64,000 nucleotides of DNA from a virus (IMGVR_UViG_3300037424_000485:128001-192000); one strand, 5' to 3'; counted from the first letter of the stretch, positions 23,956-58,557 are shown. Notes: generated by a model from the sequence alone, not told the origin. Numbers and translations are program-made.

Positions 23956-25311
23956 TTATACCTTATAAATGTAAGCTTTACCACTTGATAAACCACCTGC
24001 ATCGTCTTCCAGATAAGCACCAACAATTGCATAGTTGTCTGATATAGCTATAGAGTATCCAAAGCTATCACCATCACTAGTGTTATAAGCATTAGGGTTG
24101 TCTAATGTACTAAGCAAAGCACCTGTAGCTGGATTGTAAATATAAGCTTTACCACTTGTCAAGCCACCTGCATCATCTTCATAAGGAGCACCAACAATAG
24201 CATAGCTGTCTGATATAGAAACATAATATCCAAAATAATCGCCTGTTGTTGAGCTATAAGCATTAGGATTGTCTAGTGTATGAAGCAAAGCACCTGTAAC
24301 GCTGTTGTAAATATAAGCTATACCACTACCTAACCCACTAATATCATCTTCTTGATAAGCACCAACAATAGCATAAATATCTGAAATAGAAACAGAGTAT
24401 CCAAAGCTATCACCAGCACTAGTGTCATATGCATTAGGGTTGTCTAATGTCCATAGCAAAGTACCTGTAGCATTATCGAAAATATAAGCTTTACCGCTAC
24501 TTAAACCACCAGCATCATCTTCCAAATAAGCACCAATAATAGCATAGCTATTTGATATAGAAACAGAGTATCCAAAATAATCACCATCAGTAGTGCCATA
24601 TGCATTAGGGTTGTCAAGTGTCCATAATAGAGCACCTGTAGAAGAATTGTAAATATAAGCTTTACCACTACCTGTGCCACCTGCATCATCTTCATAAGGA
24701 GCACCAACAATAGCATAGCTATCTGATATAGCTATAGAGTATCCAAAACCATCAACAGCACTAGTGTCATAAGCATTAGGGTTATCTAGTGTCCATAATA
24801 GAACACCAGTAGCATTATCATAAATATAAGCTTTACCACTGTCCAATCCACCTGCATCATCTTCCAGCATAGCACCTACAATTGCATAGCTTTCTGAAAT
24901 AGAAACAGCTCTACCAAAGTTATCATTAAGGCTAGTGTCATAAGCATTAGGGTTATCTAGTGTCCATAATAGAACACCAGTAGCATTATCGAAAATATAA
25001 GCTTTACCACTACCTGTTCCGCCTATATCATCTTCAGCATAAGCACCTACAATTGCATAGCTATTTGATATAGATACAGCTCTACCAAAATAGTCATTAA
25101 GGCTAGTGTCATAAGCATTAGGGTTGTCTAGTGTGCGAAGAAAACTTATAAGTGCCTTACCATAGCCATCAGAAAGACTAATAGCACCTGTATAAACACC
25201 AAACAAATGTCTCAAATTAGCCTGTCCAAGGCTAATTAGTGTTGTTGATATTTCACTAAGCTCAGTATTTACTTGTGATAATGATATGCTTCCGCTTGCT
25301 GGTAATGTCAT
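23956..25311 (-). CDS. adhesin-like protein: short fibre-tip N-domain plus 7 FG-GAP-type beta-propeller blades
   Basis: MTLPASGSISLSQVNTEL...GAISLSDGYGK N-terminus; 7x TLDNPNAY..D.FG.SV.IS..YAIVGA.ED..G..SGKAYI. Confidence 0.8.
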   Translation of the reverse strand: MTLPASGSISLSQVNTELSEISTTLISLGQANLRHLFGVYTGAISLSDGYGKALISFLRTLDNPNAYDTSLNDYFGRAVSISNSYAIVGAYAEDDIGGTGSGKAYIFDNATGVLLWTLDNPNAYDTSLNDNFGRAVSISESYAIVGAMLEDDAGGLDSGKAYIYDNATGVLLWTLDNPNAYDTSAVDGFGYSIAISDSYAIVGAPYEDDAGGTGSGKAYIYNSSTGALLWTLDNPNAYGTTDGDYFGYSVSISNSYAIIGAYLEDDAGGLSSGKAYIFDNATGTLLWTLDNPNAYDTSAGDSFGYSVSISDIYAIVGAYQEDDISGLGSGIAYIYNSVTGALLHTLDNPNAYSSTTGDYFGYYVSISDSYAIVGAPYEDDAGGLTSGKAYIYNPATGALLSTLDNPNAYNTSDGDSFGYSIAISDNYAIVGAYLEDDAGGLSSGKAYIYKV

Positions 25312-25317
25312 TAAATA

Positions 25318-27837
25318 TTACCCTAGTTTAGATTCTAATATTTTAATTTTATTATTAAGTTCTTTTATAGCCTCTATTAATAGAGGGACTAATTTTTCAT
25401 ATTGAACAGTCATATAATTTTCACCTGATTTAGATGATATATATCCTAACTCTGCATCTCTATTAATATCAAATGGAGCTGGTTTTACTACTTGAGGGAG
25501 AATTAATTTTACCTCTTGAGCACTGATACCAACCTCTATATCATCACTCATATATCCATATGATTTTGCTATACTATTAGCAGTATAATAAAAGCCATTT
25601 AGGGTACTGATCATATCAAGAGCGTTTTCAATATTACCGATCTTATTTTTAAGTCTCATATCAGAAAAATAAGCAGTTATATTTCCAGTAGCTGTAATAT
25701 CCCCTGTAGTAGCAAAACCTGCACTGGCTGATTCTACTGTTATGTCATGAGATCCATCAAATTGAATACCACCTATAGTACGAGCTGTTTCAAGGGTTGT
25801 AGCAGTTGATGAATTACCTACAAGATCGCCGGTAAATGTTGTAGTTGTAAGTATACCGGCAGCAGAGTTAAAAGTTAAATTTGTACCTGTATGTATTTGC
25901 TGTATTCCCTCAGGACTATTAAAATATGCTACATAACAGCTAGTATCTGCACTCTCATCAAATGATGTAATAGTGATAGCATTCCCAGATAAAGATTGTA
26001 CATCTAACAGTTCTGACTGTGTTAAGTGATAATACTCACCAGGGCCTCCTCCTTGTATGCTACCAAGGCCATTATGGAGAACAGGTGTTGATGATTGCAG
26101 TAATTGGGAAAAAGGACTTTGAATTTCAGTTATATTTGAAGCACCTTGTAAATAAATTACCTTCCCTACTAATTGAGATCCTACACCTGTTGCTTCTGGT
26201 GGTAAAATTCCTGGTATCTCTGCCACTTGAGCATCTGTTAGTGTTGCGTACTGATCTTGTCCATATACAGAATATAAAGAAGATGAAGTACCTATAATTA
26301 AATAAATCCAATGAACACCGTAATATCCGGCTGTCATTGCTGAAAGTGTCCCTGTCCCGACATCAAAATAATTAACATCTATATCTGTTTGAGATGGCGT
26401 TCTTACCCAATCACCTCCCGACATATACAATGTAGTGAATGTATCCGCTGCACTAGTATCAAATGATGGATGGGTTCTTTTAATATTAGCTAAGTAAAAA
26501 ATACCAGCTGTTAGGTTCAATCTAAGAGCACTAGTACCTTCTGTTAGAACTGTACCTCCTGGTTGATGTTCATACCCATTAACAAAGAAGTCTTTTCTTG
26601 AGTTATTTGCCTGATAATTAAGACCATATTCTCTCATATCAACAATATGTAGAGTATTTTCTATTCTATTAACAATCCATATAGGAACTTTTGTATATCC
26701 AGCCTCTACAGGCACTGAAGTTTCACATGTAATTCTGGTAGTACCCATATTCCAATCAGCAAATAAATAGTTAGGTATATTATCTACCAATGATGATATA
26801 CCACCAATACCTGTAGTTCCAGATGGTACACTGAATTCTTCAAGTGATGTTGTGTATATATCAAGTCCTGTTCTTAATAATGCATTACCAGCGGATATAG
26901 TTACAGTTCCATTTCCATTATCAATAAGATCAAATCCACTAAGTGGTGTTGATGACATTACATGATCAAAATATGCCTGAACACTTGAAAGACTAGGTGT
27001 TTCTGAATGTGTTGGATAATCTATAGCTGATGTTGGCCATGTATAATATAGTATATTATCTACATTAACCTGTACACTTTCAATTTCATTTTGTAATATA
27101 ATAGCAGATACACTAAGTACATTTATATCATAATTATTAGCATCTATAGCTGCTGATAGAAAATCTGTATTTAACTCTAAAGAATATACGCTTGATGATA
27201 GAGGCATCATATCAATAATTGATTGTGTATTAGCATCTATAGCTGCTGATAGAAATGCTGTATATGCTGTTAAATAACTACCATCTACAGTTAAATTATC
27301 AATAGATGCTGATAGAAATTCAGTATTTAAATTAAGAGTATTTAGATGATTATCACTTACCAGTTTATTCCTAATAGTATCTATACTACCATCTACAATA
27401 CTATATATATTATGAGCACCTTCATTATAGCTAGTTCCTGTTACATGCTCAGTCCAAATATTTGCATAGTAGTTACTAACCACCCTATCTTTGGTTTGAC
27501 TATTATCTTTAACATCAACAGGATAATAATCAAGACTCTCATCAAAAACATCTACGTAATCTATATGACCTTTTGATATCCCTGCTTTATCCCATGCTAT
27601 TTTTATTTTTTGAGATGAATCATATCCGCCATCTTCTTGTAAATCTGCAATCCAGAATTCAAAAAATCCATTAGATAATGTTACTACTTGACCAACAGCA
27701 TCAGGCGATCCGCCATCTTCTTGATGATATATAGTAGCTTGTGTTTCACTACCTGCAAGATACACCTGTACAGTAGCACCTTCAATTGGTTGTCCTTCTC
27801 TGTTTATCAAATACTGCCATACATGTGCTCTAGCCAT
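25318..27837 (-). CDS. tail fibre protein with a C-terminal S74-type intramolecular chaperone
   Basis: YFSDMRLKNKI...NGFYY...VQYEKLVPLLIEAIKEL. Confidence 0.85.
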   Translation of the reverse strand: MARAHVWQYLINREGQPIEGATVQVYLAGSETQATIYHQEDGGSPDAVGQVVTLSNGFFEFWIADLQEDGGYDSSQKIKIAWDKAGISKGHIDYVDVFDESLDYYPVDVKDNSQTKDRVVSNYYANIWTEHVTGTSYNEGAHNIYSIVDGSIDTIRNKLVSDNHLNTLNLNTEFLSASIDNLTVDGSYLTAYTAFLSAAIDANTQSIIDMMPLSSSVYSLELNTDFLSAAIDANNYDINVLSVSAIILQNEIESVQVNVDNILYYTWPTSAIDYPTHSETPSLSSVQAYFDHVMSSTPLSGFDLIDNGNGTVTISAGNALLRTGLDIYTTSLEEFSVPSGTTGIGGISSLVDNIPNYLFADWNMGTTRITCETSVPVEAGYTKVPIWIVNRIENTLHIVDMREYGLNYQANNSRKDFFVNGYEHQPGGTVLTEGTSALRLNLTAGIFYLANIKRTHPSFDTSAADTFTTLYMSGGDWVRTPSQTDIDVNYFDVGTGTLSAMTAGYYGVHWIYLIIGTSSSLYSVYGQDQYATLTDAQVAEIPGILPPEATGVGSQLVGKVIYLQGASNITEIQSPFSQLLQSSTPVLHNGLGSIQGGGPGEYYHLTQSELLDVQSLSGNAITITSFDESADTSCYVAYFNSPEGIQQIHTGTNLTFNSAAGILTTTTFTGDLVGNSSTATTLETARTIGGIQFDGSHDITVESASAGFATTGDITATGNITAYFSDMRLKNKIGNIENALDMISTLNGFYYTANSIAKSYGYMSDDIEVGISAQEVKLILPQVVKPAPFDINRDAELGYISSKSGENYMTVQYEKLVPLLIEAIKELNNKIKILESKLG

Positions 27838-27864
27838 TATAAACCTCTTTTTATTTCCTTATAA

Positions 27865-29142
27865 TTAATATGCTTCATTCCATTTTTCTATCTGAGCATA
27901 ACTTCCAGATCCTGTTACTTTATAAGTGGCTCCTGGCGGTACATAGAATATTAAATGTGATGTATACTCCCACTGACATCCCCAGTTGACTGCTAAATTA
28001 TTATCTACTAATGTTAGACCAGATCCTCTATTTACATAAGCATACATGTATGCATAAAATGGAGAACATGCCGCATCATGGAAGCTTACATGAACTGCCA
28101 TTACCTTTCCAGTATTATTAGTATACAAAACATCTTTTGATTTAGAAACCTCGCCTTGCCATGTACTGAAAGGAGATGATGTAGATACTTTACTGTCAAT
28201 ATATGCTTTAATACTTTGCTGAGTAGCAAGATGAACATCAGAATTAGATGCCATGTTGTCTTCATCTTTAATAGCAGTTCCAGTTATCTGTGTATTTATA
28301 ACAGGACTTGTTAAAGTCTTATTAGTCATTGTTATAGTGCCAGAGTCAACATATGCTTTAATACTTTGCTGAGTAGCAAGATGAACATCAGAATTAGATA
28401 TCATATCATCTTCATCTAATACGGCAGTTCCCGACACACTTGTATTAAGAATTGAAGATGTTAAAGTCTTATTAGTCATATTGATAGTACCACTATCAAC
28501 ATATGCTTTAATACTTTGCTGAGTAGCAAGATGAACATCAGAATTAGATATCATATCATCTTCATCTTTTATAGCAGTTCCAGTTATCCCTAATGCATTT
28601 AACTGTACATCGGTTCCATCAATACCATTATCCAACACTTTGAATGTATTATCAGAAGCATATATATCACCTCTTAACTTACCAGCAATTTGAGCATCAC
28701 CAATAACTGTTAATCCATTATAAACAGTTAAATCACCCATAGTGGCAGATACAGCTGATAGCCCTACAGTTCCAGTATAATTTGCATATAAATTATTTAG
28801 TATGTTTACATCATGATATATAGTTATTATACTACCATTATTAGCTGATAATGAATCTGTACTTACTCCATCACCATATAACTTCATCAATGTCCATCTT
28901 TGGAAACCTGTTTCATCATTAGGTTTAATATAGTATGGCAGGTCATCACCGACTGTGATTTCAAAGGGATATGTAACCGCATTGTAAAAATACATACCGC
29001 CTTCATGTTCTGTCATTACAATATCATTATCATTGATAACATCTGTTGAGATTTTATCAACAGAATATGCCGTATCAGAAGCACCAACAATATCATTAAT
29101 TAATGTATATGCCCCCATTATTTTAATAGGTGTTACTGCCAT
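27865..29142 (-). CDS. tail-fibre-like structural protein with three internal repeats
   Basis: TA(I/V)(K/L)DED(D/N)M.SNSDVHLATQQSIKAY(V/I)DS x3. Confidence 0.75.
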   Translation of the reverse strand: MAVTPIKIMGAYTLINDIVGASDTAYSVDKISTDVINDNDIVMTEHEGGMYFYNAVTYPFEITVGDDLPYYIKPNDETGFQRWTLMKLYGDGVSTDSLSANNGSIITIYHDVNILNNLYANYTGTVGLSAVSATMGDLTVYNGLTVIGDAQIAGKLRGDIYASDNTFKVLDNGIDGTDVQLNALGITGTAIKDEDDMISNSDVHLATQQSIKAYVDSGTINMTNKTLTSSILNTSVSGTAVLDEDDMISNSDVHLATQQSIKAYVDSGTITMTNKTLTSPVINTQITGTAIKDEDNMASNSDVHLATQQSIKAYIDSKVSTSSPFSTWQGEVSKSKDVLYTNNTGKVMAVHVSFHDAACSPFYAYMYAYVNRGSGLTLVDNNLAVNWGCQWEYTSHLIFYVPPGATYKVTGSGSYAQIEKWNEAY

Positions 29143-29164
29143 ATATCCACTCCATTTAGCTAGA

Positions 29165-29602
29165 TCATCTCATAAGGGTATAATCAATTGATTTTTGAGA
29201 ATATGAATCTTCCTCTTCTCTTATGAATAAATCCTTTTGTTGATAGCACATGTCCTTTATTGTACTGTGCTTCTTTTGTTTTTCAATATACGCTACAAAA
29301 GCATTATAACATATCATAGTGATATAGTTGAAGATAGTACCTTTCTCTGGTTTGTAATTATGAAAATACTTAATTGTATTATGCAAACCTTCCATGATAA
29401 AATCTTCTTTGTATGTATACTGATTAAAATTTCCCTTGTTTGATAAATTTTTTGATATTTTAAATATCATCGTACCAAATTCTTCTGTAGTCTTTGCCGA
29501 TCCATATATATATTTACCTGCTGATGTGTATTGTGCAGTAAGTGTATATATATCAGCTTGCTTTTTTAAATCTTCAGGCTCTATATAATAATTATCTTCC
29601 AT
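29165..29602 (-). CDS. gp55: T4 gp55-like late sigma factor
   Basis: KISKNLSNKGNFNQYTYKEDFIMEG..NTIKYFHNYKPEKG.IFNYITMICYNAF matches the gp55 pattern; GGAGG RBS. Confidence 0.85.
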   Translation of the reverse strand: MEDNYYIEPEDLKKQADIYTLTAQYTSAGKYIYGSAKTTEEFGTMIFKISKNLSNKGNFNQYTYKEDFIMEGLHNTIKYFHNYKPEKGTIFNYITMICYNAFVAYIEKQKKHSTIKDMCYQQKDLFIREEEDSYSQKSIDYTLMR

Positions 29603-29640
29603 AAATTAAACTACCTCCTATAATAGTAATAATTATAATT

Positions 29641-29670
29641 ATTATATCATTTTAGGTATCGTTATGTAAA
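29641..29670 (-). promoter_or_regulatory. sigma70-like promoter for gp55
   Basis: TTTACA-18 nt-TATAAT with TGn extended -10. Confidence 0.5.
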
Positions 29671-30014
29671 TTAGATCTCTGTAGAGTTCTTTCAAACTCT
29701 TTTTGTATAATTGCAAGATCATTATTAAACTCATCAATCTTACGAAAAATTCTTTCTCTCTTTTTAGTATTTATATCAAGATGATTTATATTTTCTTCTT
29801 CCTTGATATAAAATCCAAATTTATATTTTCCTTTTAATATATTTTTAAATTGTTTATTACATTTTTCAATGGTTTCAAGAATATCTATATGTTGATATTT
29901 TTTAATCACATCAACATATAGATCATCTTTTTCAACAATTCCTATATTTAAGGAGCGAAATGTTAGTTCATCTGGTGTTTTAGAAGATAGTGTTATATAT
30001 TTAAGAAATTTCAT
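29652..30014 (-). CDS. hypothetical protein
   Basis: ORF with ATGA overlap. Confidence 0.6.
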   Translation of the reverse strand: MKFLKYITLSSKTPDELTFRSLNIGIVEKDDLYVDVIKKYQHIDILETIEKCNKQFKNILKGKYKFGFYIKEEENINHLDINTKKRERIFRKIDEFNNDLAIIQKEFERTLQRSNLHNDT

Positions 30015-33000
30015 AATGTATCTATCTTATATATATATGTTTTACCACTGTATGTTCCGCCATCATCAGACTCGCTATAAGCACCTACGATTGCATGAGT
30101 ATTAGATATTCCTACAGAATATCCGAATCTATCACCAGCAGTAGTGTCATATGCATTAGGGTTGTCAAGTGTGTGAAGCAAAGCACCTGTAGCATTATCG
30201 AAAATATAAGCTTTACCACTATTTGTCCCATCAATACTATCTTCTCTATAAGCACCTACAATAGCATAGCTATCTGATATAGATACAGAATATCCAAACT
30301 GATCATCAGCACTAGTGCCATATGCATTAGGGTTGTCTAATGTCCATAGCAAAGCACCAGTAGCATTATCATAAATATATGCTTTACCACTACCTAATCC
30401 ACCAGCATCACCCTCTTGATAAGCACCTACAATAGAATAAGTATCTGATATAGAAACAGATATACCAAAATAATCAACAGCACTAGTGTCATAAGCATTA
30501 GGGTTGTCTAGTGTCCATAATAGAGCACCAGTAGCATTATCATAAATATAAGCTTTACCACTGTCCAATCCACCTGCATCATCTTCAGCATAAGCACCTA
30601 CAATAGAATAAGTATCTGATATAGAAACATTATTTCCAAACTGATCACCAGCACTAGTGTCATAAGCATTAGGGTTGTCTAGTGTATGAAGCAAAGTGCC
30701 TGTGATAGTATTATAAATATAAGCTTTACCACTATTTACACCTCCTATATCGTTTACTTCATAGGCACCTATAATGGTATAAGTATCATTAATTGATATA
30801 GAAGATGCAAATCCACCAGATAATGATGGATTTGTTAATGTATGTAATAAGGAACCTGTAGATGTAGTATATATATATACAACACCATTTCCAATAATAC
30901 CCCCTTCATAAGGTGTTGCAACAGCTGTATAAGTATCTGATATAGCTACAGAATATCCAAAGCTATCACCAGCACTAGTGTCATAAGCATTAGGGTTGTC
31001 TAATGTATGAAGTAAAACACCTGTTGCATTATCAAATATATAAGCTTTACCACTATCTATACCACCACCAACACCATCCTCCTCAGGAGCACCAATAATA
31101 GCATAAGTATCTGATATAGCTATAGAGTATCCAAATTTATCCCAATCTGATGTTCCATATGCATTAGGGTTGTCTAATGTTAATATAGATACCTCAGGAA
31201 CTGCTTCTATATATTCATTTGTTATCAACCATGTATCACTATAAATACAACCCTCTACAGTTACAGTAACATCATTTCTAGCAGCACCAGTAGCACTTAC
31301 TATATGAGAGAAGCCTTGACTGTAATATCCCATATCTCCGACAAATACATATGCAGGATCGGATAATGTCCATGTTAGATCACCAGAAGCTGCATCTGTT
31401 TTTACATATACAATAGCTGTTTCATAAGGATTAATAGTAAAATTAGATATAGATGTATTTATATCAATATAGGATATTCCCTCATACACTGTAGTTAATG
31501 TATTTTCTATATATACACCTGTTCCAGAGCTAACAGATATAGTCACATCTTCCCCATCAGACCCGGAACAAGATATACCTAGAGTCACAACATATAAATC
31601 TGGATTTAAAGGATCTATATAATATGAATCTGTTAAAGGGTGATATCCTGTATGAGTTTTAGTTCCAGTATCAGACCATACAACCCCCGGTAGTGTTGAT
31701 GTAATATCCCATGTCAAAACAGAAGGATGTGCATTTGTGCTTATACTTATTAATGACTCAGACCCACATTGATTTATAGGAATTGTTGTTGATGTAGCAC
31801 CATCTCCATCAACAACATCATTCCATGCTATAGTTTCACCCATAGCTGTTTTAATAACCCTGTAATGCATTAAAAAATCTACATATGGTGGTTTGTATAA
31901 ATCAGAAATGGTAGTTCTAAATTGTACTTTATCTCTACTAATGATCTCTATTGTAGCAATATCCTCATACTCAGAAGCATAATCAAGACCCCAATTCATA
32001 TAGTAATGTCTATTATCTCTTTTAAATTCTGAGATAACACCAGTTTCTAACACGTTTTGATCTCCATCAAGTAGCTTATATGTTGGGGAGTTTTGAATAC
32101 CAAAACTATCAAATCCAATAAGCTCTTGAAGGATATTATAACTTCCACCATCTATTAATATAGCAGTACCGGACTGAGGAGTGCTAAATGTTAGCTTTGT
32201 AGACATGATGTTAAGCAATTTTATATCATCTGGTACTATGCTTACTCCATCTGTATCATATGATTGAATAAATATAAGCTTGCTTTCAAAATCATGATTT
32301 ACAATACAGCTATTATCCACACCAGATGTTTCAAATGTCTGTAATGTTAATGTTTCATTTGATGATAAATGTACATTTATGGTATTAATACTTATATTTC
32401 CTATACCTATATCAATTTCTATATTGTTGTCATCTATAATTGTTACAGAATCAATATCTATAAGACTCTGTTCTCCATTAATAGTATTATATTCATATAC
32501 CTGTACAAAAAGATCATCCCTGTTTAAAGAATGCTCTATTGATAGTATTTGATTACCACCAACATTTGTTGTTATAGGTGTTTTATTTGCTTTTTTAATA
32601 ACAATATATCCTGACTTTAATCCACTAAATGTTACTAATACATTTTCGCCATTATTTGTTATTACTGTAGATATAGGTGTTATTAGATTATTTACTTTAT
32701 CAAAGCATTGAATTATTAAATTCTGTGTATTTAGATCGGTATGAAATACCCACTCTGAAGCAGATACACACTGAAGTCCTATATATGTCGTTGCAGTATA
32801 ATAATCTTGTGTAAATGATCTAGAATTTACATATGTATTTGTATAACTCTCTCCTAAACTATTCTTATCACCATATAGAGACATAACATCCCCTGTTAAA
32901 TCAACTATTGGTGAAAACACAACACTATATCTGCAAGTTCTATAAACAGGTCTTACAGTCTCAAATGCATCGTATAGACCATCAAATGTAGCCTTTGAGA

Positions 33001-34507
33001 ATACAGAAGTGTTGGATAAAGGTTCTGAATTTATATCTAGCTCTACCCTATAGTTAGATGATAAAACCATATCATCCATAGAGTATCTATTTAATGGATA
33101 GTCTGGAAAATCAACAGATGATGATATAGGAGTACATACATCTAAATTAGTTATATCGATGTAAGGATATTCTGCATACCAACCAACTCCTGCTCCATCT
33201 GTATATACAGATACATTATAATCATCTAGGGATGTGTATATAATATCTTCCCACTCGTCTTCTTGTACAACTCTTGTAGTGTCTATTAGTGATTGATTTC
33301 CAGATGGTATCCATCTTTCATAAACATTAAGACGATTTGTTGTTTGAGTAACAGCACTCCAAACAGCATATAGATCAGAAAATGTTCCTTTTCTTTTTAG
33401 AAGATGAATTATATTTTTAACAAATTCTCTATATACAGAATCCTCCTGTACTATTGGTTGAAAATCTGTCATACCATAATATTGAGATAGATATCCAATA
33501 TATTTAATATCTACCTCGCTTGGATCATAAGGAGTATAACCATCCTTTTGTCTTGTATATATATTATGATATAATCTATCAAATGCTATATTGATAAATT
33601 CTTTCAAATTAGGGGTTCTTTGATGTTGTGGTACAAGAGTAAATATATAGTCTTTAAGACCATAATATTCTATAATATAATTAATACCTTCTTCATTAGC
33701 AGCTGCTTCATATATTTTACCAAGATATATAAACATTTTATCAGTGTTTATATATCCTCGTATATCAATTTCTATACCAAATTTTTCTCTAATAATATCC
33801 TGTGCAAATCTAGTTAGCCAATCATGAAACATACTATCTTTTCTAAAATATACTTCTCTACCTATAATGAGATTTATAAATTGTGTTGTATCATATTCTA
33901 GAAAATATCCACCAGAAATAGAAGACCCAGGGATAACACTAGCAATACTACCTGGATATTCTTTATAATCATTATGCACTGAGATTCTAATTAGATTTTC
34001 ATCTTGAAAATCTACATAAGTAAAATTAAGAGGGAAATATCCTTTTTGTTTATCAGATCCTAGCTCATCATCAGGATTATGTTTAATAAACAATTCATCT
34101 ACATCTCCACCATCAGTTATAATACCGTTTTCAACACTAAATAGAGCACAATCACCGCTTGATGACATAGCCCATATATTACTATCAGTAGCATAGCTTG
34201 ACATATTAAATTTTATTCTTTCTCTATAGTGTTCATCTCTTCTATCAAAAAAATATACACCACCACTAGTACCAGCAGATGCTATCATACCATTTGTGTA
34301 GTAGTCTGCACTCTCAACATCACCATTGATAAGTATAGCACCACCTGTAGTTTGGTAACTATCAAATTGCCTACTTGAAAATAAAATATTATCCCATTTT
34401 ATAGACTTGTTATAATCTGTATTTGGAAATGGAATATAGTTTGTGCTGGCATAATTATCTGTTAAATATTCTTTTAATATAAAATATGGTGTTTCTGCAA
34501 ATTTCAT
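30011..34507 (-). CDS. baseplate wedge-like (gp7/gpI-like) protein with a C-terminal 7-blade FG-GAP propeller
   Basis: Follows gp6; VDIKYIGYLSQYYG...HLLKRKGT motif; 7 TL(D/T)NP blades at the C-terminus. Confidence 0.7.
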   Translation of the reverse strand: MKFAETPYFILKEYLTDNYASTNYIPFPNTDYNKSIKWDNILFSSRQFDSYQTTGGAILINGDVESADYYTNGMIASAGTSGGVYFFDRRDEHYRERIKFNMSSYATDSNIWAMSSSGDCALFSVENGIITDGGDVDELFIKHNPDDELGSDKQKGYFPLNFTYVDFQDENLIRISVHNDYKEYPGSIASVIPGSSISGGYFLEYDTTQFINLIIGREVYFRKDSMFHDWLTRFAQDIIREKFGIEIDIRGYINTDKMFIYLGKIYEAAANEEGINYIIEYYGLKDYIFTLVPQHQRTPNLKEFINIAFDRLYHNIYTRQKDGYTPYDPSEVDIKYIGYLSQYYGMTDFQPIVQEDSVYREFVKNIIHLLKRKGTFSDLYAVWSAVTQTTNRLNVYERWIPSGNQSLIDTTRVVQEDEWEDIIYTSLDDYNVSVYTDGAGVGWYAEYPYIDITNLDVCTPISSSVDFPDYPLNRYSMDDMVLSSNYRVELDINSEPLSNTSVFSKATFDGLYDAFETVRPVYRTCRYSVVFSPIVDLTGDVMSLYGDKNSLGESYTNTYVNSRSFTQDYYTATTYIGLQCVSASEWVFHTDLNTQNLIIQCFDKVNNLITPISTVITNNGENVLVTFSGLKSGYIVIKKANKTPITTNVGGNQILSIEHSLNRDDLFVQVYEYNTINGEQSLIDIDSVTIIDDNNIEIDIGIGNISINTINVHLSSNETLTLQTFETSGVDNSCIVNHDFESKLIFIQSYDTDGVSIVPDDIKLLNIMSTKLTFSTPQSGTAILIDGGSYNILQELIGFDSFGIQNSPTYKLLDGDQNVLETGVISEFKRDNRHYYMNWGLDYASEYEDIATIEIISRDKVQFRTTISDLYKPPYVDFLMHYRVIKTAMGETIAWNDVVDGDGATSTTIPINQCGSESLISISTNAHPSVLTWDITSTLPGVVWSDTGTKTHTGYHPLTDSYYIDPLNPDLYVVTLGISCSGSDGEDVTISVSSGTGVYIENTLTTVYEGISYIDINTSISNFTINPYETAIVYVKTDAASGDLTWTLSDPAYVFVGDMGYYSQGFSHIVSATGAARNDVTVTVEGCIYSDTWLITNEYIEAVPEVSILTLDNPNAYGTSDWDKFGYSIAISDTYAIIGAPEEDGVGGGIDSGKAYIFDNATGVLLHTLDNPNAYDTSAGDSFGYSVAISDTYTAVATPYEGGIIGNGVVYIYTTSTGSLLHTLTNPSLSGGFASSISINDTYTIIGAYEVNDIGGVNSGKAYIYNTITGTLLHTLDNPNAYDTSAGDQFGNNVSISDTYSIVGAYAEDDAGGLDSGKAYIYDNATGALLWTLDNPNAYDTSAVDYFGISVSISDTYSIVGAYQEGDAGGLGSGKAYIYDNATGALLWTLDNPNAYGTSADDQFGYSVSISDSYAIVGAYREDSIDGTNSGKAYIFDNATGALLHTLDNPNAYDTTAGDRFGYSVGISNTHAIVGAYSESDDGGTYSGKTYIYKIDTL

Positions 34508-34510
34508 TAA

Positions 34511-36316
34511 TTATCCTTCGTTGATAACTACACAATGATTTATTGATAGTCTTGGAAATTGATCATATCGTAAAACAATTCTTCTTATACTATTATCATA
34601 TAGATATCCACTACCTCCATCATCAATATAAGATTTTTCATAATGAGGAAATTGTTGTGTTGATGGAATACTTAGGTCATATATAGTTTCTGAATTTCCT
34701 GAAACAGGTGTAGTGTATATATTTAAATCTCTAAATAATAGATTTCTTATTCCTCTTGTATTAGTGAAATCATCTGTTGAAGATGTATTTGCAGGGTCTA
34801 TAAGAAATTCAGTTATATCAAAGAAGTCTATAGTTTCCCCAAACTTTCTAAACTCAAGACTAAAATAATATTCTAATTTATTTAATAGATCAGTCCTAAC
34901 ATTTGTAAAATTATAGTTTCTCTTTATTTTAATTCCTATTTCAAACATAAAATATACAAAATTTGGAATAATAAGAGTTTCTAAAACATTTATAGCCTTT
35001 CTTTGTTCTAAGTATCTGATAATACCTGTATTATAATCTGAATCATAAGATACTGGAACTTGTATATCAGCTGTAATAGGTGATGTTACTGTAGACAATC
35101 CCCACGCATGTGCTGATGTCTCTAAAGTCCCTAATTGAAATGATATACCATCTCCACTTAAAGGGGGTATAGTAGAGAAATATACTTTATTAAATAGAAT
35201 TGGCTGACCTGCATTTATATCTTGTTCTCCCCATGCATAAGCAACAACAACATCTGTTCTCTCCTCAAGGTTTACCTTATAGTCATTTTTAGTTATGTTC
35301 CTAAGTTGAGATTGAATAATAGCTTTTGAATTATTTCTTAAATCATCAAGTGTTTCTGGATTAGATGCCTGACTAGCAACATTGGTATTTGTTACTGTGT
35401 GTATATTTACTACATCAACAACAGAATTTAATGTTAGATTTGAAATATTTATTCCTTCTAAACTGGTTATAACTCCTTTATCTATTATACCATTAACACC
35501 ATTAGATTTAAGAACCTTAACTCTTATAATTGACTGTAATGATGGAACGTTCCTTGAGGTTGAAAAATCAATAACATACTGTTTATATTTATCATAATTA
35601 AATTGAAAAACATTATTACCCTCTGTAGTGGTAACACCAGAAAGACCCTCATAAAAATCAGACACGCGCTGCCATCCTGTATATTCAGTATCACCAGTTA
35701 GTGAGTTTTTAATAGAAACTTGGATACTTTCCATTGTGAAAGGATATATACCATAATCATATTTAAATAGAGGTAATAATATTTGATTATCTACTAACTC
35801 ATCACCATAATATTCTAAATCAACAATAGCTCCTTCTCTAAGCTCTATTTCAAAAGAAGCATTGCCATTTATATCTACAGTGGTTAAAGCCTCAGATTCT
35901 GTATTTGGAACATAAGAATATATGATAGGCTGACCATCATCTGTTTCCAGACCAGTATCAATATATTGCCATGGCTCTATATATAGTTGATTACCTACTG
36001 GTAGTCCACTTACAGATATTGATAATGTTGTTTGTCCTGATACATATCCTTTTGGCTGATATCCCTTTGTTTTTACAATCCTATGCAATACTTCAAAAAT
36101 ATCTGTTGTATCTTCATAACTATTTTTAGCTAGTAGGTTTGTATAATAAGTGCTAAGATCACCAACATATGAGAATAGTTCAATAAGCATTGCTATATTA
36201 GAGCCTTCAAAGTTATAATCTTTAAAAACCTCGCTCTTACCCATAAGATTTTTTAATCTTGTTTGCAGGGAATTGAAATCAGTTTCTAGATATGATGGTT
36301 GAAGTTCATTTGACAT
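34511..36316 (-). CDS. gp6: baseplate wedge protein gp6-like
   Basis: DFNSLQTRLK...FKDYNFEGSNIAMLIELFSY...ETLDDLRNN..Q.RNITKNDYK. Confidence 0.9.
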   Translation of the reverse strand: MSNELQPSYLETDFNSLQTRLKNLMGKSEVFKDYNFEGSNIAMLIELFSYVGDLSTYYTNLLAKNSYEDTTDIFEVLHRIVKTKGYQPKGYVSGQTTLSISVSGLPVGNQLYIEPWQYIDTGLETDDGQPIIYSYVPNTESEALTTVDINGNASFEIELREGAIVDLEYYGDELVDNQILLPLFKYDYGIYPFTMESIQVSIKNSLTGDTEYTGWQRVSDFYEGLSGVTTTEGNNVFQFNYDKYKQYVIDFSTSRNVPSLQSIIRVKVLKSNGVNGIIDKGVITSLEGINISNLTLNSVVDVVNIHTVTNTNVASQASNPETLDDLRNNSKAIIQSQLRNITKNDYKVNLEERTDVVVAYAWGEQDINAGQPILFNKVYFSTIPPLSGDGISFQLGTLETSAHAWGLSTVTSPITADIQVPVSYDSDYNTGIIRYLEQRKAINVLETLIIPNFVYFMFEIGIKIKRNYNFTNVRTDLLNKLEYYFSLEFRKFGETIDFFDITEFLIDPANTSSTDDFTNTRGIRNLLFRDLNIYTTPVSGNSETIYDLSIPSTQQFPHYEKSYIDDGGSGYLYDNSIRRIVLRYDQFPRLSINHCVVINEG

Positions 36317-36332
36317 TTATATGTTCCTTTAT
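36285..36332. repeat. 48-bp perfect direct repeat, copy 1 (copy 2 at 37210..37257)
   Basis: TCTAGATATGATGGTTGAAGTTCATTTGACATTTATATGTTCCTTTAT at both positions. Confidence 0.95.
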
Positions 36333-48437: not shown

Positions 48438-49295
48438 TTATTTACATCTAAGCTGATTATATTTACAGCCATCTTGTTTATGTACTTCTTTATGACACTT
48501 TTTACATAATGTAATACAATTGTCTATATCAGCACTTTCAATAGGATTTATTTCGATACCCTCAAAGTGATGACAGTGTAGTTCTTTTGATGAGTTACAC
48601 TTCTGACATGTCCAATTGTCACGTTCAAATACTATATTTCTTAAATCTGGTTGATCTTTTCTTATTTTTATATCAACATTATTATTTATTAAAGTTGTTA
48701 TATGTTTTCCAAAAACATAACACTTTTGTCTACATTCATCAGAACAGTAAAACAGTCTATTTTCTTTATTTCCTTTAATAGTCTGTACTCTATTATCAAC
48801 AAGTGATCTCGATGGGATAAACCATTTATTACATTTGTTATGATAGCACCTTACTTCTAATATATTTTCATCATCAGGACATCTTCTTGTTTCTTCATAT
48901 GGCTCTAACTTATGTGAATAAGAGTCGTAATATACATATTCACACCCACCTTTAAATCCAATACCTAATTTACTACTACTTATTTTTCTTCTATGCTCTT
49001 TGGAAAGTTTTCTATTATAATTACCGTTTTTATAGCCAGACAACATACCCTTCATTATATTACTGTGATTGTTTTTAAATTCCTCTGTATGTTCTCTACC
49101 ATAAAAAGGGTTTCCATCACCTTCAAAATACTCTTTCTTACAATCATTAGAACAGTATGAATTGTTATTTCTTGAGCTTATATATAGCTCTTCACATATA
49201 GTACATTCACACAAATATCTTGTTTTATTATTGACAAGAAAATTGCCTCTTAAAGATAAACTTAATGTATCTATATTATCCCAACATAGTTTCAT
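48438..49295 (-). mobile_element. free-standing HNH homing endonuclease with NUMOD3-like motifs
   Basis: GNPFYGREHTEE, FERDNWTCQKC...LHCHHFE; paralogue of 45668..46531. Confidence 0.8.
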
Positions 49296-53692: not shown

Positions 53693-54029
53693 TTATCCTA
53701 TAGCCTTTCTGATACCATTTTCATCAGTGGTTATATAATCCATACCACTCAATTCACTCTTCATAACATTTTGAAGTACAGTTGTAGTTGATGAATACTT
53801 ATCTACATTCAGATAAATCTTTCCACTTTTATATCTATAAAGAATAGGTGTTTCATAATTAACCATACTCCATCCATTTACTTCCTTGTTTATTTTAAGA
53901 TTTTTAGTTCCCCAATTAGGCATTTTATTTTTTTGGAAATTCATCACCAATAAACATATTAATAACCTCTTGATTTGTGGCTTCATTTACTAAATATTTC
54001 TCAATCTTATCTTCTATTTTCATGTTCAT
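53693..54029 (-). CDS. 111-aa gene interrupted by one extra base in an A7 run (or two coupled ORFs)
   Basis: MNMKIEDKIEKYLVNEA...GDEFPKK* (54029..53925) continues in +1 frame as NKMPNWGTKNLKI... Confidence 0.55.
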
Positions 54030-54032
54030 TTC

Positions 54033-54740
54033 TTACCTTCCAAATATTTTTTCATCAATAGATGAGTAATCATCTATTGCATCACTTTCTTCTTCAATAT
54101 ACTCATTGTCTCCATATTCCAATAATTCATCATATATAGGTGTTCCATCTGCCGCACTGCTGGTAGCTGTAAGTGTTGCTGTTGGGTCTAATTTATGCAA
54201 TCTGTATGCCTCTAGTGACTCACTGCTATATCTGAAAGGTCTAAGTATTAATTCCCAAATCAGCTTCTTAGCTTGAAAGATTTGCTGTTCCGCCCCCACA
54301 TTCACTACCTCATACTTCCTGTTATTCCATTTAGTATGAATTACCATTCCTGGTATAGGGTGAAGATTACCAGCACTTAATGATGGTATTGATAAAAATG
54401 TATCTGTACAGTCCCTTGCAAACATAGTCTTAGGAATGACAGCATATTGTAGTGTCTCATCACTGGTAATACCAAAAGACTCAAGTATACTTGTTTCTTC
54501 TGTTGGTTCATATATTAGTTTTGTAGTGATAGCATTTGATAGATTTGTATTTGGATCTTCACCATATAATTTATCCCAGCTAACAATAGGAAAATATATA
54601 TCGATTTCAAATCCGACAACATCCGTAAATTCATTAATAAATGAGTCATATAGATAATGCTCTGGATTGTCTGATGAAATATCATAAAGCCTCCAAAGTG
54701 GTGTTCCTGCTAAAGCATTTTTAACTGTTTCTATTGACAT
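54033..54740 (-). CDS. gp14: neck protein gp14-like
   Basis: EFTDVVG..I.IYFP..D.LYGEDP...SFGITSDET...PGMVI...YEVVNV. Confidence 0.85.
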   Translation of the reverse strand: MSIETVKNALAGTPLWRLYDISSDNPEHYLYDSFINEFTDVVGFEIDIYFPIVSWDKLYGEDPNTNLSNAITTKLIYEPTEETSILESFGITSDETLQYAVIPKTMFARDCTDTFLSIPSLSAGNLHPIPGMVIHTKWNNRKYEVVNVGAEQQIFQAKKLIWELILRPFRYSSESLEAYRLHKLDPTATLTATSSAADGTPIYDELLEYGDNEYIEEESDAIDDYSSIDEKIFGR

Positions 54741-55611
54741 CTATAAAATCCTCAATCTTATCAAAACAGCAATATTTATTATTAATCCAATCACTTTCAT
54801 TAATAACCAATAAATCTATTCCTTTTTCTTGACATTGTTTTATTTTTATTATATCTTTTTCTTTTATCATATCTAGAGAATGCCAATACTCACCATTAAA
54901 TTCTATAGCTTTATTTAAAGATGGTATCCATATATCTAATTCAAGATTAAAACCTGTTTTAGGATTTAATATTTGTGTTCTATCGTTTGGTAAGAATGAT
55001 ATCCTATCTGATAAAAAACTCTGTATTTCTTTCTCTGCCTTAGAAGATGTTTTTTCTCTATCACAATTAGGGCATCTCTTACCTTGTTGAAAATTATACC
55101 ATCTCACCTTGTATTTATGATTATTATTACATTTTATATTTATTGGTGACTGTGCATTTACATATTCTTTGCTTAATAGGATATATCCTTCATTTTCTAT
55201 CTGTTCTTTTACATAATCATATGATAGTTTTTCTCTTCCACAACAAGAAATACATCTCTTACCTTGTTGAAAATTTCCATATGTTATAAGACTTTCATGT
55301 CCTTTGTTGCATTTAACACTTAAAATACTTGTAGTATTTACATATTCTTTGCTTAATAGGACATATCCTTCATTTTCTATCTGTTCTTTTACATAATCAT
55401 ATGATAGTCTTCGTGTGTTATGTGATTTTTCATTACCACAAATTCTACATCTATGTCCTTTTTTAAAAGACCAAAATGTAGGATGATATATATGTCCTTT
55501 ATTACATTTAACTTCTAATTTAGAATTAGATCCTATATAATTTTCTGATAGTAGTTCATATCCTTCATTTTCTATCTGTTCTTTTACAAATTCATATGTA
55601 TCCTTCTTCAT
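54721..55611 (-). mobile_element. free-standing endonuclease gene, paralogue of 36306..37241
   Basis: EQIENEGY.LLS repeats; ELDIWIPSLNKAIEFNGEYWH; start refined to MKKDTYEF. Confidence 0.8.
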
Positions 55612-55639
55612 ATATGTATTTATATAATATCTATAATAA

Positions 55640-56278
55640 TTACGTAGGCCAGCCAGTAGTAATATCATAATTGATAATATCTAAATGGTTTTGAAGAAGA
55701 TTTATGGCTTTACTATGATTATATTCATTTCTAAAGCATTGTTGTACATGAAACCCTACAACATTTGCTATAATTAATGCTGTTGTACTATCTATATCTA
55801 CCCATCCGTCATCACCTTTAAAATTAATTAACTCTGTTGGGTTAAGCTCGATAAACGACTTCAAACCATTGATCATGGCCTGACTACTTCTATCTGTTGA
55901 TATAGTAATACTCCCCCCGCCACTTAATGGCATGGAAAGACCGCTTATTTCTTTTTGATATCTAAATGTTGCTAGTTCTTTTAATTTATAATACCTTATA
56001 GATTCTGTATTAGCCGCTATTTCTTCTGGTGTTAATTCAGTAATAACCCATGAAATTGTCCATATGTCAGATATAAGATGTGGATATGAGCTTGATAAAC
56101 CTTGTGTTGTGGTATCATAGCTTGGAGCACCTGATGAGACTACAGTAAATACATCATAGCTGTTAAGTATTTCTTCTGTTATACTACGAGGAAACGAAAC
56201 ATTAGGGTTGTCTGCATGAAGATCTATAAGGGTATATGGATATTTTTGTATAATTCCGTTATTTGCTTTTAAGTACAT
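55640..56278 (-). CDS. tail-fibre-assembly-like protein (DUF4376-type C-terminus)
   Basis: KLKELATFRYQKEISG...ISTDRSSQ...NFKGDDGWV...VQQCF..E. Confidence 0.7.
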   Translation of the reverse strand: MYLKANNGIIQKYPYTLIDLHADNPNVSFPRSITEEILNSYDVFTVVSSGAPSYDTTTQGLSSSYPHLISDIWTISWVITELTPEEIAANTESIRYYKLKELATFRYQKEISGLSMPLSGGGSITISTDRSSQAMINGLKSFIELNPTELINFKGDDGWVDIDSTTALIIANVVGFHVQQCFRNEYNHSKAINLLQNHLDIINYDITTGWPT

Positions 56279-56292
56279 TTATTCTCTCTCTT

Positions 56293-58557
56293 TTATAAAT
56301 CATATATGTAAGCTTTACCACTGTTTAGATAGCCATCCTCATCCTCCAATGGCGCACCAATAATAACATGTGTATCTGATATAGATACAGTATATCCAAA
56401 CTGATCACCGGTACTTGTTCCGAATGCATTAGGATTGTCTAATGTATGAAGTAAAATACCTGTAGCATTATCATAAATATAAGCTTTACCGCTTGATAAA
56501 CCACCTGCATCGTCTTCTAAATAAGCACCTACAATTGCATAGCTATCTGATATAGCTACAGAATATCCAAACCAATCGTTGGCAGTAGTGCTATATGCAT
56601 TAGGGTTGTCAAGTGTCCACAATAGAGCACCTGTAGCATTATCATAAATATAAGCTTTACCGCTTGATAAACCACCTGCATCGTCTTCTAAATAAGCACC
56701 TACAATTGAATATGTATTAGATATAGCTACGGCCCTACCAAAGCTATCACCAGCACTAGTACCATAAGCATTAGGATTGTCAAGTGTATGAAGCAAAGCA
56801 CCTGTAACATTATCGAAAATATAAGCTTTACCGCTACTTAAACCACCTGCATCGTCTTCTTGATAGGCTCCAACTATTGAATAGTTGCCATGAGTAGAAA
56901 CCGAATATCCAAATCTATCAGCAGCACTAGTTCCATATGGATTTGGATTGTATAGTGTATGAAGTAAAGATCCATTTGTAGTATTGAATATATATGCTCG
57001 TCCACTATCAGCCTGAGTGTCATCTACACCATAAGCACCAACAATAGCATATGAATTTGAAATACTTACTGATCTTCCAAAAAAACCACCTGTACTATAT
57101 GCGTTTAGTGTATGAAGCAAAGCACCTGTAACGCTGTTGTAAATATAAGCTTTACCAGATTGAGTAGATTCATAATGAGCACCAATAATAGCATAAGTAT
57201 CTGATATAGCTACACAATATCCAAAATAATCTTCAGTGCTGGTTCCATAAGCATTAGGATTGTTTAATGTATGGAGTAAAGCACCTGTAGTATTATCATA
57301 AATATAAGCCTTACCGCTTTGTACTCCTCCAGCATCATCCTCTTGATAAGCACTTACAATTGAATAATTATCTGATATATCAACACTATAACCGAATCTA
57401 TCTTCAGTGCTAGTTCCATATGGATTTGGATTGTTTAATATGTTAGAGGGAGCTGATATTATTGTCGGGATTCTATAAATATAAGCTTTACCGCTACTTA
57501 AACCACCAGCATCGTCTTCTAAATAAGCACCTACAATTGCATAGTTGTCTGAGATAAATACAGATCTGCCAAAATAGTCATTAAGGCTAGTGTTATAAGC
57601 ATTAGGGTTATCTAATGTACTAAGCAAAGCACCAGTGGCTGGATTAAAAATATAAGCTTTACCGCTACTTAAACCACCAGCATCATCCTCACCATAAGCA
57701 CCTACAATTGCATAATTATCTGATATAGCTACAGAATATCCAAAGCTATCACCAGCACTAGTGTCATAAGCATTAGGGTTGTCTAGTGTATGAAGCAAAG
57801 TGCCTGTAGCATTATCGAAAATATAAGCTTTACCGCTACTTAAACCACCAGCATCATCCTCACCATAAGCACCTACAATTGCATAATTATCTGATATAGA
57901 TATATCTATCCCGAATTGATCACTAGCAGTAGTGCTATAAGCATTAGGGTTGTCTAATGTCCATAGCAAAGCACCTGTAGATGGATTGTAAATATAAGCT
58001 TTACCACTTGATAATCCACCGGCATCGTCTTCTTGATGTGATCCCACAATAGCATATGTATTAGAGATAGCTACATTCTGACCAAAGTTATCATTAAGGC
58101 TAGTGTCATAAGCATTAGGGTTGTCTAATGTCCATAGCAAAGCACCTGTAGAAGGATTATAGATATAAACCACACCACTGCCAACATCACCAGCAGGGCT
58201 TTTTTCATTATAAGCACCTACAATAGCATAGCTTTCTGATATCCCAACAGAATATCCAAAAACATCAACAGCAGTAGTGCCATATGCATTAGGGTTATCT
58301 AATGTACTAAGCAAAGCACCAGTGGCTGGATTAAAAATATAAGCTTTACCACTTGTCAAGCCACCTGCATCATCCTCACCATAAGCACCTACAATTGCAT
58401 AGCTATCTGATATAGCTATAGAGTATCCAAAGCTATCACCATCACTAGTGTTATAAGCATTAGGGTTGTCTAATGTTTGTGATAGTGTGATATTAATAGG
58501 GGTTTCCGGTAGTGTTTCAGGTATACTACCACACATCATTAAATCTCTATATCCCAT
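56293..58557 (-). CDS. virion protein with 13 FG-GAP-type blades (6+7, tandem propellers)
   Basis: 13 TL(D/N/Y)NP blade starts counted; linker IYRIPTIISAPSN after blade 6. Confidence 0.8.
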   Translation of the reverse strand: MGYRDLMMCGSIPETLPETPINITLSQTLDNPNAYNTSDGDSFGYSIAISDSYAIVGAYGEDDAGGLTSGKAYIFNPATGALLSTLDNPNAYGTTAVDVFGYSVGISESYAIVGAYNEKSPAGDVGSGVVYIYNPSTGALLWTLDNPNAYDTSLNDNFGQNVAISNTYAIVGSHQEDDAGGLSSGKAYIYNPSTGALLWTLDNPNAYSTTASDQFGIDISISDNYAIVGAYGEDDAGGLSSGKAYIFDNATGTLLHTLDNPNAYDTSAGDSFGYSVAISDNYAIVGAYGEDDAGGLSSGKAYIFNPATGALLSTLDNPNAYNTSLNDYFGRSVFISDNYAIVGAYLEDDAGGLSSGKAYIYRIPTIISAPSNILNNPNPYGTSTEDRFGYSVDISDNYSIVSAYQEDDAGGVQSGKAYIYDNTTGALLHTLNNPNAYGTSTEDYFGYCVAISDTYAIIGAHYESTQSGKAYIYNSVTGALLHTLNAYSTGGFFGRSVSISNSYAIVGAYGVDDTQADSGRAYIFNTTNGSLLHTLYNPNPYGTSAADRFGYSVSTHGNYSIVGAYQEDDAGGLSSGKAYIFDNVTGALLHTLDNPNAYGTSAGDSFGRAVAISNTYSIVGAYLEDDAGGLSSGKAYIYDNATGALLWTLDNPNAYSTTANDWFGYSVAISDSYAIVGAYLEDDAGGLSSGKAYIYDNATGILLHTLDNPNAFGTSTGDQFGYTVSISDTHVIIGAPLEDEDGYLNSGKAYIYDL

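Follow-up and report, generated by a model that had tools for sequence, protein, structure and literature searches.

The receptor-binding protein Gp45 of Staphylococcus phage phi11 carries a five-bladed propeller that serves as a glycan-binding platform (PMC4901313). In the (gp37)3-gp38 complex of phage S16, a gp38 monomer caps the gp37 trimer through three equivalent contacts (PMC6851490). Tetart et al. 1998 and Trojet et al. 2011, as cited in the latter paper, concern mosaic tail fibres that recombine at the glycine-rich and His-box motifs of T-even gp37/gp38. FG-GAP proteins of marine myoviruses appear in a 2025 preprint, and a 2024 paper called a prasinovirus possibly the first virus with FG-GAP repeats; we found no published description of the function of phage FG-GAP proteins or of exchange among such paralogues. 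Here, we describe three genes of an uncultured virus, P0001, P0002 and P0003, which together encode 27 FG-GAP_2 propeller blades. They are located in a stretch of 64,000 nucleotides (nt), hereafter called the window, which corresponds to bases 128001-192000 of the 204,431-bp IMG/VR record IMGVR_UViG_3300037424_000485 (completeness estimate 85%).

The reading that we favour, with a probability of about 60%, is that the 27 blades constitute one mosaic pool formed through old gene conversion and that the propellers bind surfaces: P0001 as a gp38-like cap, P0002 on the baseplate and P0003 as part of a second fibre cassette. What is new here is, on the one hand, the statistical support that the sequence alignments lend to an exchange of blades among the three genes of a single genome and, on the other, the link of a propeller with a fibre-capping head that is widespread and apparently undescribed.

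Twenty-seven blades of one repeat family

All the genes discussed are on the minus strand, which carries all long open reading frames (ORFs) of the window. P0001 (451 amino acids (aa); positions 23956..25311) consists of a 58-aa head (25138-25311) followed by propeller blades A1-A7. P0002 (1498 aa; 30011..34507) has a 1,109-aa body and ends in blades B1-B7 (30011-31180), while P0003 (754 aa; 56293..58557) consists of a 27-aa N-terminus and blades C1-C13. Pfam family PF14312 (FG-GAP_2; cut-off 23 bits) matched seven stretches in P0001 (E-value 8e-78, 256.8 bits), seven in P0002 (aa 1110-1498; 1e-58, 195.5 bits) and 13 in P0003 (1e-131, 429.4 bits), in agreement with the counts of an initial annotation of this DNA, and a six-frame scan of the whole record returned these 27 blades and no others. 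One repeat unit is indeed shared by the three genes, as that annotation had held, but its modal length is 57 aa rather than about 56 aa; the consensus is TLDNPNAYxTSxxDxFGxSVxISxxYAIVGAxxEDDAGGxxSGKAYIYxxxTGxLLx.

The AlphaFold2 (AF2) model of P0001, made with 40 homologues, has four strands per unit (pLDDT, the predicted value of the local distance difference test, 85; predicted template modelling score (pTM) 0.85), and an N-terminal strand, residues 56-62, is placed for ring closure. Integrin alpha propellers are the top matches of this model in the Protein Data Bank (PDB) when searched with Foldseek (4mmz_A, E 2e-21, query-normalised template modelling score (TMq) 0.67). Its best viral matches include a “virion structural protein” of cyanophage S-TIM5 and giant-virus collagen-repeat proteins (BFVD, E 1e-28 to 1e-32). 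P0001 is predicted to be a seven-bladed beta-propeller of the integrin alpha type, and the integrin-alpha-like FG-GAP fold assumed earlier found support in Pfam, the model and Foldseek alike. The turn between strands 1 and 2 of a blade is only 2-3 residues long (columns 24-25 of the blade alignment), and the acidic EDDAGG motif sits in the 2-3 loop. Pfam detected no catalytic families in the propeller proteins.

The AF2 model of P0003 is all-beta (pLDDT 75.8, pTM 0.83). With VIA-align, seven-bladed propellers superpose on its residues 23-424, which equal seven units. Therefore, the 6+7 arrangement put forward for these 13 blades is not established, although their number is, and a 7+6 division of the modelled protein appears at least as likely.

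Related phage FG-GAP proteins in GenBank (S-TIM5, S-MbCM6 and Vibrio nt-1) show about 30% identity; the label “virion structural protein” of S-TIM5 gp054 stems from GenBank annotation alone. The TLDNPNAY subfamily of the window has much nearer relatives among metagenomic proteins, in the thousands (50-72% identity), and the window propellers have more than 4,700 close relatives in environmental phage sequence.

Mosaic tracts shared by blades of different genes

The blades do not cluster by gene. At the nucleotide level, blades of one gene are on average 71.1% identical and blades of different genes 71.9%, the seven-blade sets show no positional orthology, and on a maximum likelihood tree of the blades the gene label changes 14 times versus a mean of 12.1 times with shuffled labels. 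Supported clades of mixed gene origin are (A1,A2,C6), with values of 99/94, and (A7,C1), with 96/98. We also compared all blades with one another in a Sawyer/GENECONV-style test, in which the 136 polymorphic alignment columns were permuted and significance was global, across all blade pairs. Six pairs share globally significant tracts: four are between genes, namely B2/C5 (global P 0.015), A7/C1, A2/B4 (global P 0.024) and A4/C4, and two, C11/C12 and C4/C5, are both in P0003. Strict clustering by gene and an absence of mosaicism were thus looked for, and neither the tree nor the permutations revealed them.

A 71-nt tract is identical between A7 and C1 (columns 1-24 of both; 24038..24108 and 58406..58476; loop NTSDGDS) and ties the final blade of P0001 to the opening blade of P0003; this identity, already pointed out in the initial annotation, is exact. 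B2 and C5 have 69 nt in common at columns 2-25 (30934..31002 and 57717-57785; loop DTSAGDS), and A2 and B4 61 nt at columns 34-54 (24804..24864 and 30526-30586). In all, the blades form a patchwork of exact tracts of 30-82 nt, the longest of which (82 and 80 nt) occur inside P0003. Blade C5 is a composite, which corresponds to B2 at columns 2-25, to C4 at columns 21-48 and, starting at column 43 and running on into the following blade, to C1. Tract ends tend to fall in the conserved boxes TLDNPNAY, FGxSVxIS, EDDAGG and SGKAYIY, and several of the exact tracts take the variable 4-1 loop (see below) along as a cassette.

As a control, we used the propeller genes of three other phages. The longest between-gene tracts in the window (61, 69 and 71 nt) compare with tracts of at most 33 nt to these genes, although amino-acid identity to the latter is equal or higher; one of them encodes P0062, a protein with 73% similarity to the window propellers, above the similarity among the paralogues themselves. 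Because mosaic tracts occur between genes and reach 61-71 nt, against 33 nt or less to other phages, the exchange of blades between genes via homologous recombination, the core of the initial annotation, appears well supported. Furthermore, P0003 was compared with P0004, a 13-blade protein encoded in another T4-like contig (L004): the similarity is 66.8% on the diagonal and 66.7% off the diagonal, while the blades of P0004 are 77% alike among themselves. Without blade-by-blade orthology between the two proteins and with blades so alike in P0004, concerted evolution is therefore a feature of the family as a whole.

Tempo of exchange

No match to the reverse transcriptase family PF00078 was found at E ≤ 0.1 in the 204-kb record (about 85% complete), so that the absence reported for the window extends to the whole record. 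A diversity-generating retroelement (DGR) was considered and ruled out, the record being devoid of a reverse transcriptase. A further two independent assemblies, each from another sample, match the record at 100% identity over 7,090 and 5,950 bp, which include the whole of P0001 and four P0002 blades. Given this identity, there is no sign of fast, programmed switching, and assembly error is unlikely. A dedicated recombination-driven system, as had been proposed, is not borne out by three assemblies that agree fully at P0001 and part of P0002. Mean synonymous divergence between the blades is high (pS 0.47), which suggests that most of the exchanges are old. The Logan contigs of two sediment runs and one soil run (23800-34600) break at every repeat of at least 31 nt; their joints and variant letters fall in the repeats and stem from paralogous blades, and are uninformative on chimeras in the population.

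Variable loops

The blade alignment has entropy peaks at columns 13 and 15 (2.4 and 3.0 bits), while columns 33 and 42 (2.9 and 2.5 bits) as well as 51-52 show comparable entropy. From the predicted strand positions, columns 9-15 belong to the loop between strands 4 and 1, which is long, and columns 32-42 to that between strands 2 and 3. The ligand-binding face of integrins is made up of the 4-1 and 2-3 loops, as reportedly set out by Springer in 1997. All the loop sequences that had been quoted (SLNDY, SLNDN, SAVDG, TDGDY, SAGDS, SDWDK, STEDR and TANDW) are present. The same columns vary in 476 blades of 118 other proteins (r = 0.90 versus the window genome), among which 372 of the 476 seven-residue loops are distinct; the pattern therefore belongs to the family and not to the window genome. 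The loop that the initial annotation called hypervariable is thus variable but not unique, since the 2-3 loop varies too, and does so throughout the family.

Pooled ratios of nonsynonymous to synonymous substitution (dN/dS) are 1.5 at columns 9, 12, 13 and 15, 0.8 at the variable 2-3 loop columns, 0.10 at the conserved loop columns and 0.35 overall. These values, noisy as they come from gene-converted paralogues, are indicative only, because the column sets were picked after the variability had been seen; this includes the four loop codons at about 1.5. By analogy with integrins, in which the 4-1 and 2-3 loops lie on the ligand face, the position of the variable residues in the same loops suggests that the propellers are most likely surface-binding heads, with a host or a glycan as target.

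A conserved head, probably at the tip of a fibre

P0001 starts 6 nt past the stop of a gene for an 839-aa tail fibre (25318..27837; PHROG long-tail-fibre distal subunit). This fibre has a C-terminal Peptidase_S74 (PF13884) match of 34.8 bits (cut-off 22; aa 725-785, nt about 25318-25665), and its C-terminus matches S16 gp37 (PDB 6F45_A, E 1.3e-5). A putative cleavage motif, GNITAYF|SDMRLK, is present at S725, where SDMRLK are residues 725-730.

The head of P0001 contains three pseudo-repeats: SISLS (residues 8-12), LISLG (25-29) and AISLS (43-47). When residues 1-58 of P0001 were searched exhaustively with HMMER, this head turned up in the representatives of at least 1,383 clusters (50% identity); the matching proteins are 57 to 1,315 aa long, and the match invariably lies at residues 1-53. 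The head, which proteins P0123-P0272 also carry, has the consensus MtLPaSGaISLsQVNTELG..T..ISLN...VR.LFGV.SGAISMSdGYGKS. The head corresponds to no Pfam family, and PHROG 26817 carries the label “unknown function”. In the C-terminal parts of 75 head proteins, Gly_rich_2 occurs in 10, and SPRY, Laminin_G_3, fn3 and other propellers occur as well. Nine of the 75 match the Pfam GP38 adhesin at E ≤ 0.001; among nine members rescanned one by one, three were above the cut-off of 25 bits (P0210, 31.9; P0213, 27.8; P0135, 25.7). FG-GAP_2 is absent from the best 150 of the at least 1,383 head proteins.

The head gene directly follows a Peptidase_S74 fibre gene in all five instances checked (the window, L001, L016, L015 and Vibrio phage PhiImVa-1). 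The gene for P0062, which is 65% identical to P0001 over the full length, head included, occurs in a SU10-like podovirus contig, unrelated to the window, where it directly follows the gene of an S74 fibre of 1,088 aa. In addition, we observed at positions 1-9239 of a 282-kb contig (L014) a 412-aa FG-GAP_2 propeller without the ISL head, 2 nt past the gene of a giant protein of 3,042 aa; the C-terminal 998 aa of this giant protein gave no S74 match.

We modelled three copies of fibre residues 560-725 together with one copy of P0001 residues 1-58. The interface score (interaction prediction score from aligned errors, ipSAE) was 0.82, compared with 0.15 for the best of three controls; three runs share at least 95% of contacts, with a partner pLDDT of at least 91. 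In the calibration, 51 of 78 solved complexes reached the ipSAE mark, as did 2 of 108 mismatched pairs, counts that are only rough for a 3+1 assembly. The modelled contacts bring together residues 718-724 of all three fibre chains, that is, the C-terminal strands that remain after the predicted S74 cleavage, and residues 6-12, 22-29 and 42-47 of P0001, which correspond to the three ISL pseudo-repeats. The head has no match among PDB sequences, and recall of a solved complex is therefore unlikely for the head itself.

Taken together, the gene order, the S74 fibre, the head family and the complex model bear out the location of one propeller at a fibre tip: as modelled, the P0001 propeller probably caps the trimeric fibre tip as a single copy, in a gp38-like manner. 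P0001 gave no Pfam match to PF05268 (GP38) and would therefore be a functional analogue of gp38, not a member of the gp38 family.

Putative virion sites of P0002 and P0003

P0002 lies 3 nt after a homologue of the baseplate wedge subunit gp6 (34511..36316; phrog_219, E 8e-31), at the position that gp7 occupies in T4. Its body (31181-34507, aa 1-1109) is nearly an orphan, with one homologue among 5.8 billion proteins (P0122, 873 aa, 28% identity, devoid of FG-GAP). It has no Pfam family and no match in phage records or the Atlas, and its sole PHROG match, phrog_21918, is of unknown function. By its place in the gene order, P0002 probably displays a propeller on a gp7-position baseplate protein; the baseplate propeller proposed earlier is supported only in part, by the position right after the gp6 homologue.

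The start of P0003 overlaps the stop of a gene for a 648-aa fibre protein (TAATG; 58557..60503; PHROG tail fibre), and downstream lies a gene for a 212-aa DUF4376 or tail-assembly-chaperone-like protein (55640..56278; PF14301). This three-gene order (fibre, 13-blade protein, chaperone-like gene) recurs around P0004 in contig L004, where the downstream gene encodes a Phage_tail_APC chaperone with 45% identity over 94 aa to the 212-aa protein, and where the upstream gene shows weak homology to the 648-aa fibre. Judging from this conserved gene order, P0003 belongs to a second fibre cassette. Its place between neck-protein genes does not indicate a neck location, and the neck propeller of the initial annotation is not borne out.

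Within the 648-aa fibre, aa 47-141 consist of a 33-aa unit, SAYEIAINNGFIGSEAEWISSLSVSGADGADGI, in three tandem copies. Furthermore, a motif DEDxMxSNS...TQQSxKxYxD occurs in one copy in this fibre and in three copies in a 425-aa tail-fibre protein (27865..29142; PHROG tail fibre) encoded upstream of the 839-aa fibre. The 425-aa protein has a repeat of about 43 aa in three copies.

Genomic setting

PHROG and Pfam scans recognised a T4-type structural block in the window (G+C 30-36%), which includes a large terminase, a neck-type adaptor, a gp15-like sheath stabiliser and the sheath, a baseplate hub, a gp5-like hub/lysozyme and gp25-like and gp6-like wedge proteins, as well as a gp55-like late sigma factor, several fibre proteins and four genes for HNH homing endonucleases. 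The sheath protein is 33-39% identical to the best-matching isolates among the matches listed, which include Pelagibacter phage HTVC008M and T4-like phages of Stenotrophomonas, Ochrobactrum and Sinorhizobium. Megablast with 14 kb of the window against an isolated-phage collection gave zero matches at the DNA level, and relatives sought with the P0002 body and gp6 were not close either (best, 38% along a short segment). The sequence is present in two sediment metagenome runs. We read the window as the block of tail and virion genes of a distant T4-like myovirus, uncultured and AT-rich.

The T4 late-promoter motif TATAAATA has 33 matches versus 23 expected, which is not significant, and none is located directly upstream of the P0001, P0002 or P0003 genes. 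The four HNH genes form two paralogous pairs (36306-37241, 54721-55668, 45668-46531 and 48438-49295; PHROG/Pfam) and sit amid essential tail genes: one separates gp25 from gp6, one is near P0003 and two flank the sheath gene. A thymidylate-synthase-like gene (20141-21798) is apparently interrupted. Its 113-aa N-terminal ORF (21457-21798) has the intein-like sequence CYSEDTEVLTDIGW at the end and is overlapped by a 445-aa ORF (20141-21478), of which the first 260 aa or so are intein/homing-endonuclease-like and the last 175 aa match thymidylate synthase; from these sequences, an intein may be combined with a frameshift.

Discussion

The simplest account of the mechanism is homologous recombination of the ordinary kind, acting on direct repeats of a phage that replicates in the T4 manner, the conserved blade cores supplying DNA homology in the same orientation in all three genes. 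Non-crossover gene conversion would copy segments of 30-80 nt between blades, within and between genes, over evolutionary time, often including the variable 4-1 loop, so that the 27 blades would be one mosaic pool instead of three lineages. Only non-crossover tracts would survive, because crossing-over between these repeats, which are separated by as much as 34 kb, would delete essential genes. HNH genes beside two of the three propeller genes could, as a speculation, stimulate conversion. On the particle, the 839-aa fibre would trimerise and then shed its Peptidase_S74 chaperone at S725, after which one P0001 would cap the three freed GNITAYF strands via its three ISL pseudo-repeats, leaving a single propeller at the fibre tip. 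The P0002 propeller would be carried by the gp7-position baseplate protein and P0003 would act in the second fibre cassette.

The tracts themselves could be explained in other ways. The blades might never have been exchanged between genes, having arisen by recent tandem duplication within genes or by the copying of entire propellers, with purifying selection then acting on the scaffold. Such a history, which would suit the known expansion of tandem repeats through slippage or unequal crossing-over and the location of the 82- and 80-nt tracts in P0003, is improbable in view of blades that ignore gene boundaries, seven-blade sets out of positional register, the four between-gene pairs with globally significant tracts and single blades that are chimeric from blades of different genes. 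Even less probable is a programmed diversification, with frequent targeted switching of cassettes as in pilE/pilS or vlsE, or by a DGR. The layout does resemble a set of donor and acceptor cassettes, and the HNH genes at 36306-37241 and 54721-55668, beside two of the three genes, are possible sources of double-strand breaks; on the other hand, the approximately 85% complete record has no reverse transcriptase, every copy is a full-length gene of the expressed type, without silent cassettes, the three assemblies do not differ at any position and the pS of 0.47 points to exchanges that are mostly old. As to false mosaics, created by a short-read assembler that mixed reads of near-identical repeats, the contig is derived from a metagenome and Logan unitigs of two runs break inside the repeats. 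We nevertheless consider an artefact very improbable indeed: the exact repeats, of 82 nt or less, are presumably below read length (which we assume), the reading frames are all intact with a regular 57-aa periodicity, and the assemblies from two other samples are identical over the 7,090 and 5,950 bp that take in P0001 and part of P0002.

A larger, yet still unlikely, alternative concerns the function of the propellers, which could be decoration, binding to the environment (mucus, exopolysaccharide or particles, compare Hoc-type immunoglobulin domains) or carbohydrate-active enzymes instead of receptor binding. We found no functional study of phage FG-GAP_2 proteins, the phage comes from sediment metagenomes, and three separate carriers could mean general stickiness and not specific receptor recognition. 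Receptor binding is favoured by the fusion of the same head, elsewhere, to GP38-type adhesins and lectin-like domains, by the association of all three genes with fibre or baseplate genes, and by the lack of a detectable catalytic family in Pfam.

Several points weigh against the interpretation of a converted blade pool that displays binding heads. Shared codon bias in one genome adds to the excess of nucleotide over amino-acid identity, although it explains neither the long tracts nor the permutation result. The identical consensus of three samples means that exchange is not visibly ongoing in the dominant genotype, and the dN/dS columns were preselected, as mentioned. The solved 6F45 complex has a similar architecture, so part of the success of the complex model may reflect this likeness, and the GN[IV]TAY|SD strand is general to S74 fibres, its conservation not being specific to the pairing of the 839-aa fibre with P0001. 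The virion sites of P0002 and P0003 are proposed from gene order, and it is from the above data that we infer binding, capping and presence in virions.

A wider proposal follows the head beyond this genome. The 53-aa head with its three ISL elements may be an undescribed and very widespread trimer-to-monomer adaptor, which would let podoviruses, N4-like viruses and myoviruses mount any monomeric binding domain, be it a gp38 body, a lectin, SPRY or a propeller, on the end of an S74-processed fibre; in the window it would mount a propeller from a genome-wide pool of 27 blades, the specificity of which could be re-tuned by gene conversion with the baseplate and second-fibre copies. We advance this combination tentatively, as a possibility that we judge somewhat short of even. 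If true, the head would aid the annotation of receptor-binding proteins across thousands of uncultured phages and could be used as a plug-in handle when fibres are engineered in laboratory phage-host systems. Environmental phage sequence abounds in FG-GAP_2 propellers of this type, and the locus yields testable hypotheses: a gp38-like tip propeller, the head as a solution for attaching a monomer to a trimer, and paralogous blades that swap loop-bearing segments.

Comparison with known systems

The gene for the window's gp38-like protein, like that for gp38 in T2 and S16, directly follows the distal fibre gene, and S16 gp37 (PDB 6F45) is homologous to the C-terminus of the 839-aa fibre. As in gp38, one monomer is predicted to attach by way of three equivalent contact elements in a small N-terminal domain, and in other phages heads of the P0001 type are fused to true GP38-family adhesin bodies. 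The P0001 head differs from the solved gp38 in that it has no detectable sequence similarity to it, its predicted contact elements are three ISL segments whereas those of gp38 are three Trp-tipped helices, and a seven-blade FG-GAP propeller takes the place of the polyglycine sandwich as binding body. With phi11 Gp45, P0001 and its paralogues would have in common the beta-propeller as the binding platform of a phage receptor-binding protein, although Gp45 has five blades, belongs to another family and is a homotrimer on a siphovirus baseplate.

With integrin alpha, the phage propellers have the seven-bladed FG-GAP fold and the FG...GA motifs in common, and their variable residues fall in the loops of the integrin ligand face. 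In contrast, sequence identity is only about 17%, there is no beta-subunit partner, the phage blades are far more regular, and their acidic EDDAGG motif is in the 2-3 loop whereas integrin alpha has its canonical Ca2+ hairpin, DxDxDGxxD, in the 1-2 loop. S-TIM5 gp054, the S-MbCM6 structural protein, the Vibrio nt-1 “FG-GAP repeat protein” and the mimivirus collagen-repeat proteins are of the same Pfam family and fold as the window propellers; in isolated phages, FG-GAP_2 is annotated as single genes, while the window has three. Finally, as in the mosaic evolution of T-even gp37/gp38, conserved boxes flank variable binding segments and appear to act as recombination linkers. The classic T-even cases concern orthologous genes of co-infecting phages, whereas the exchange described here would take place among paralogous repeats in three genes of one genome.

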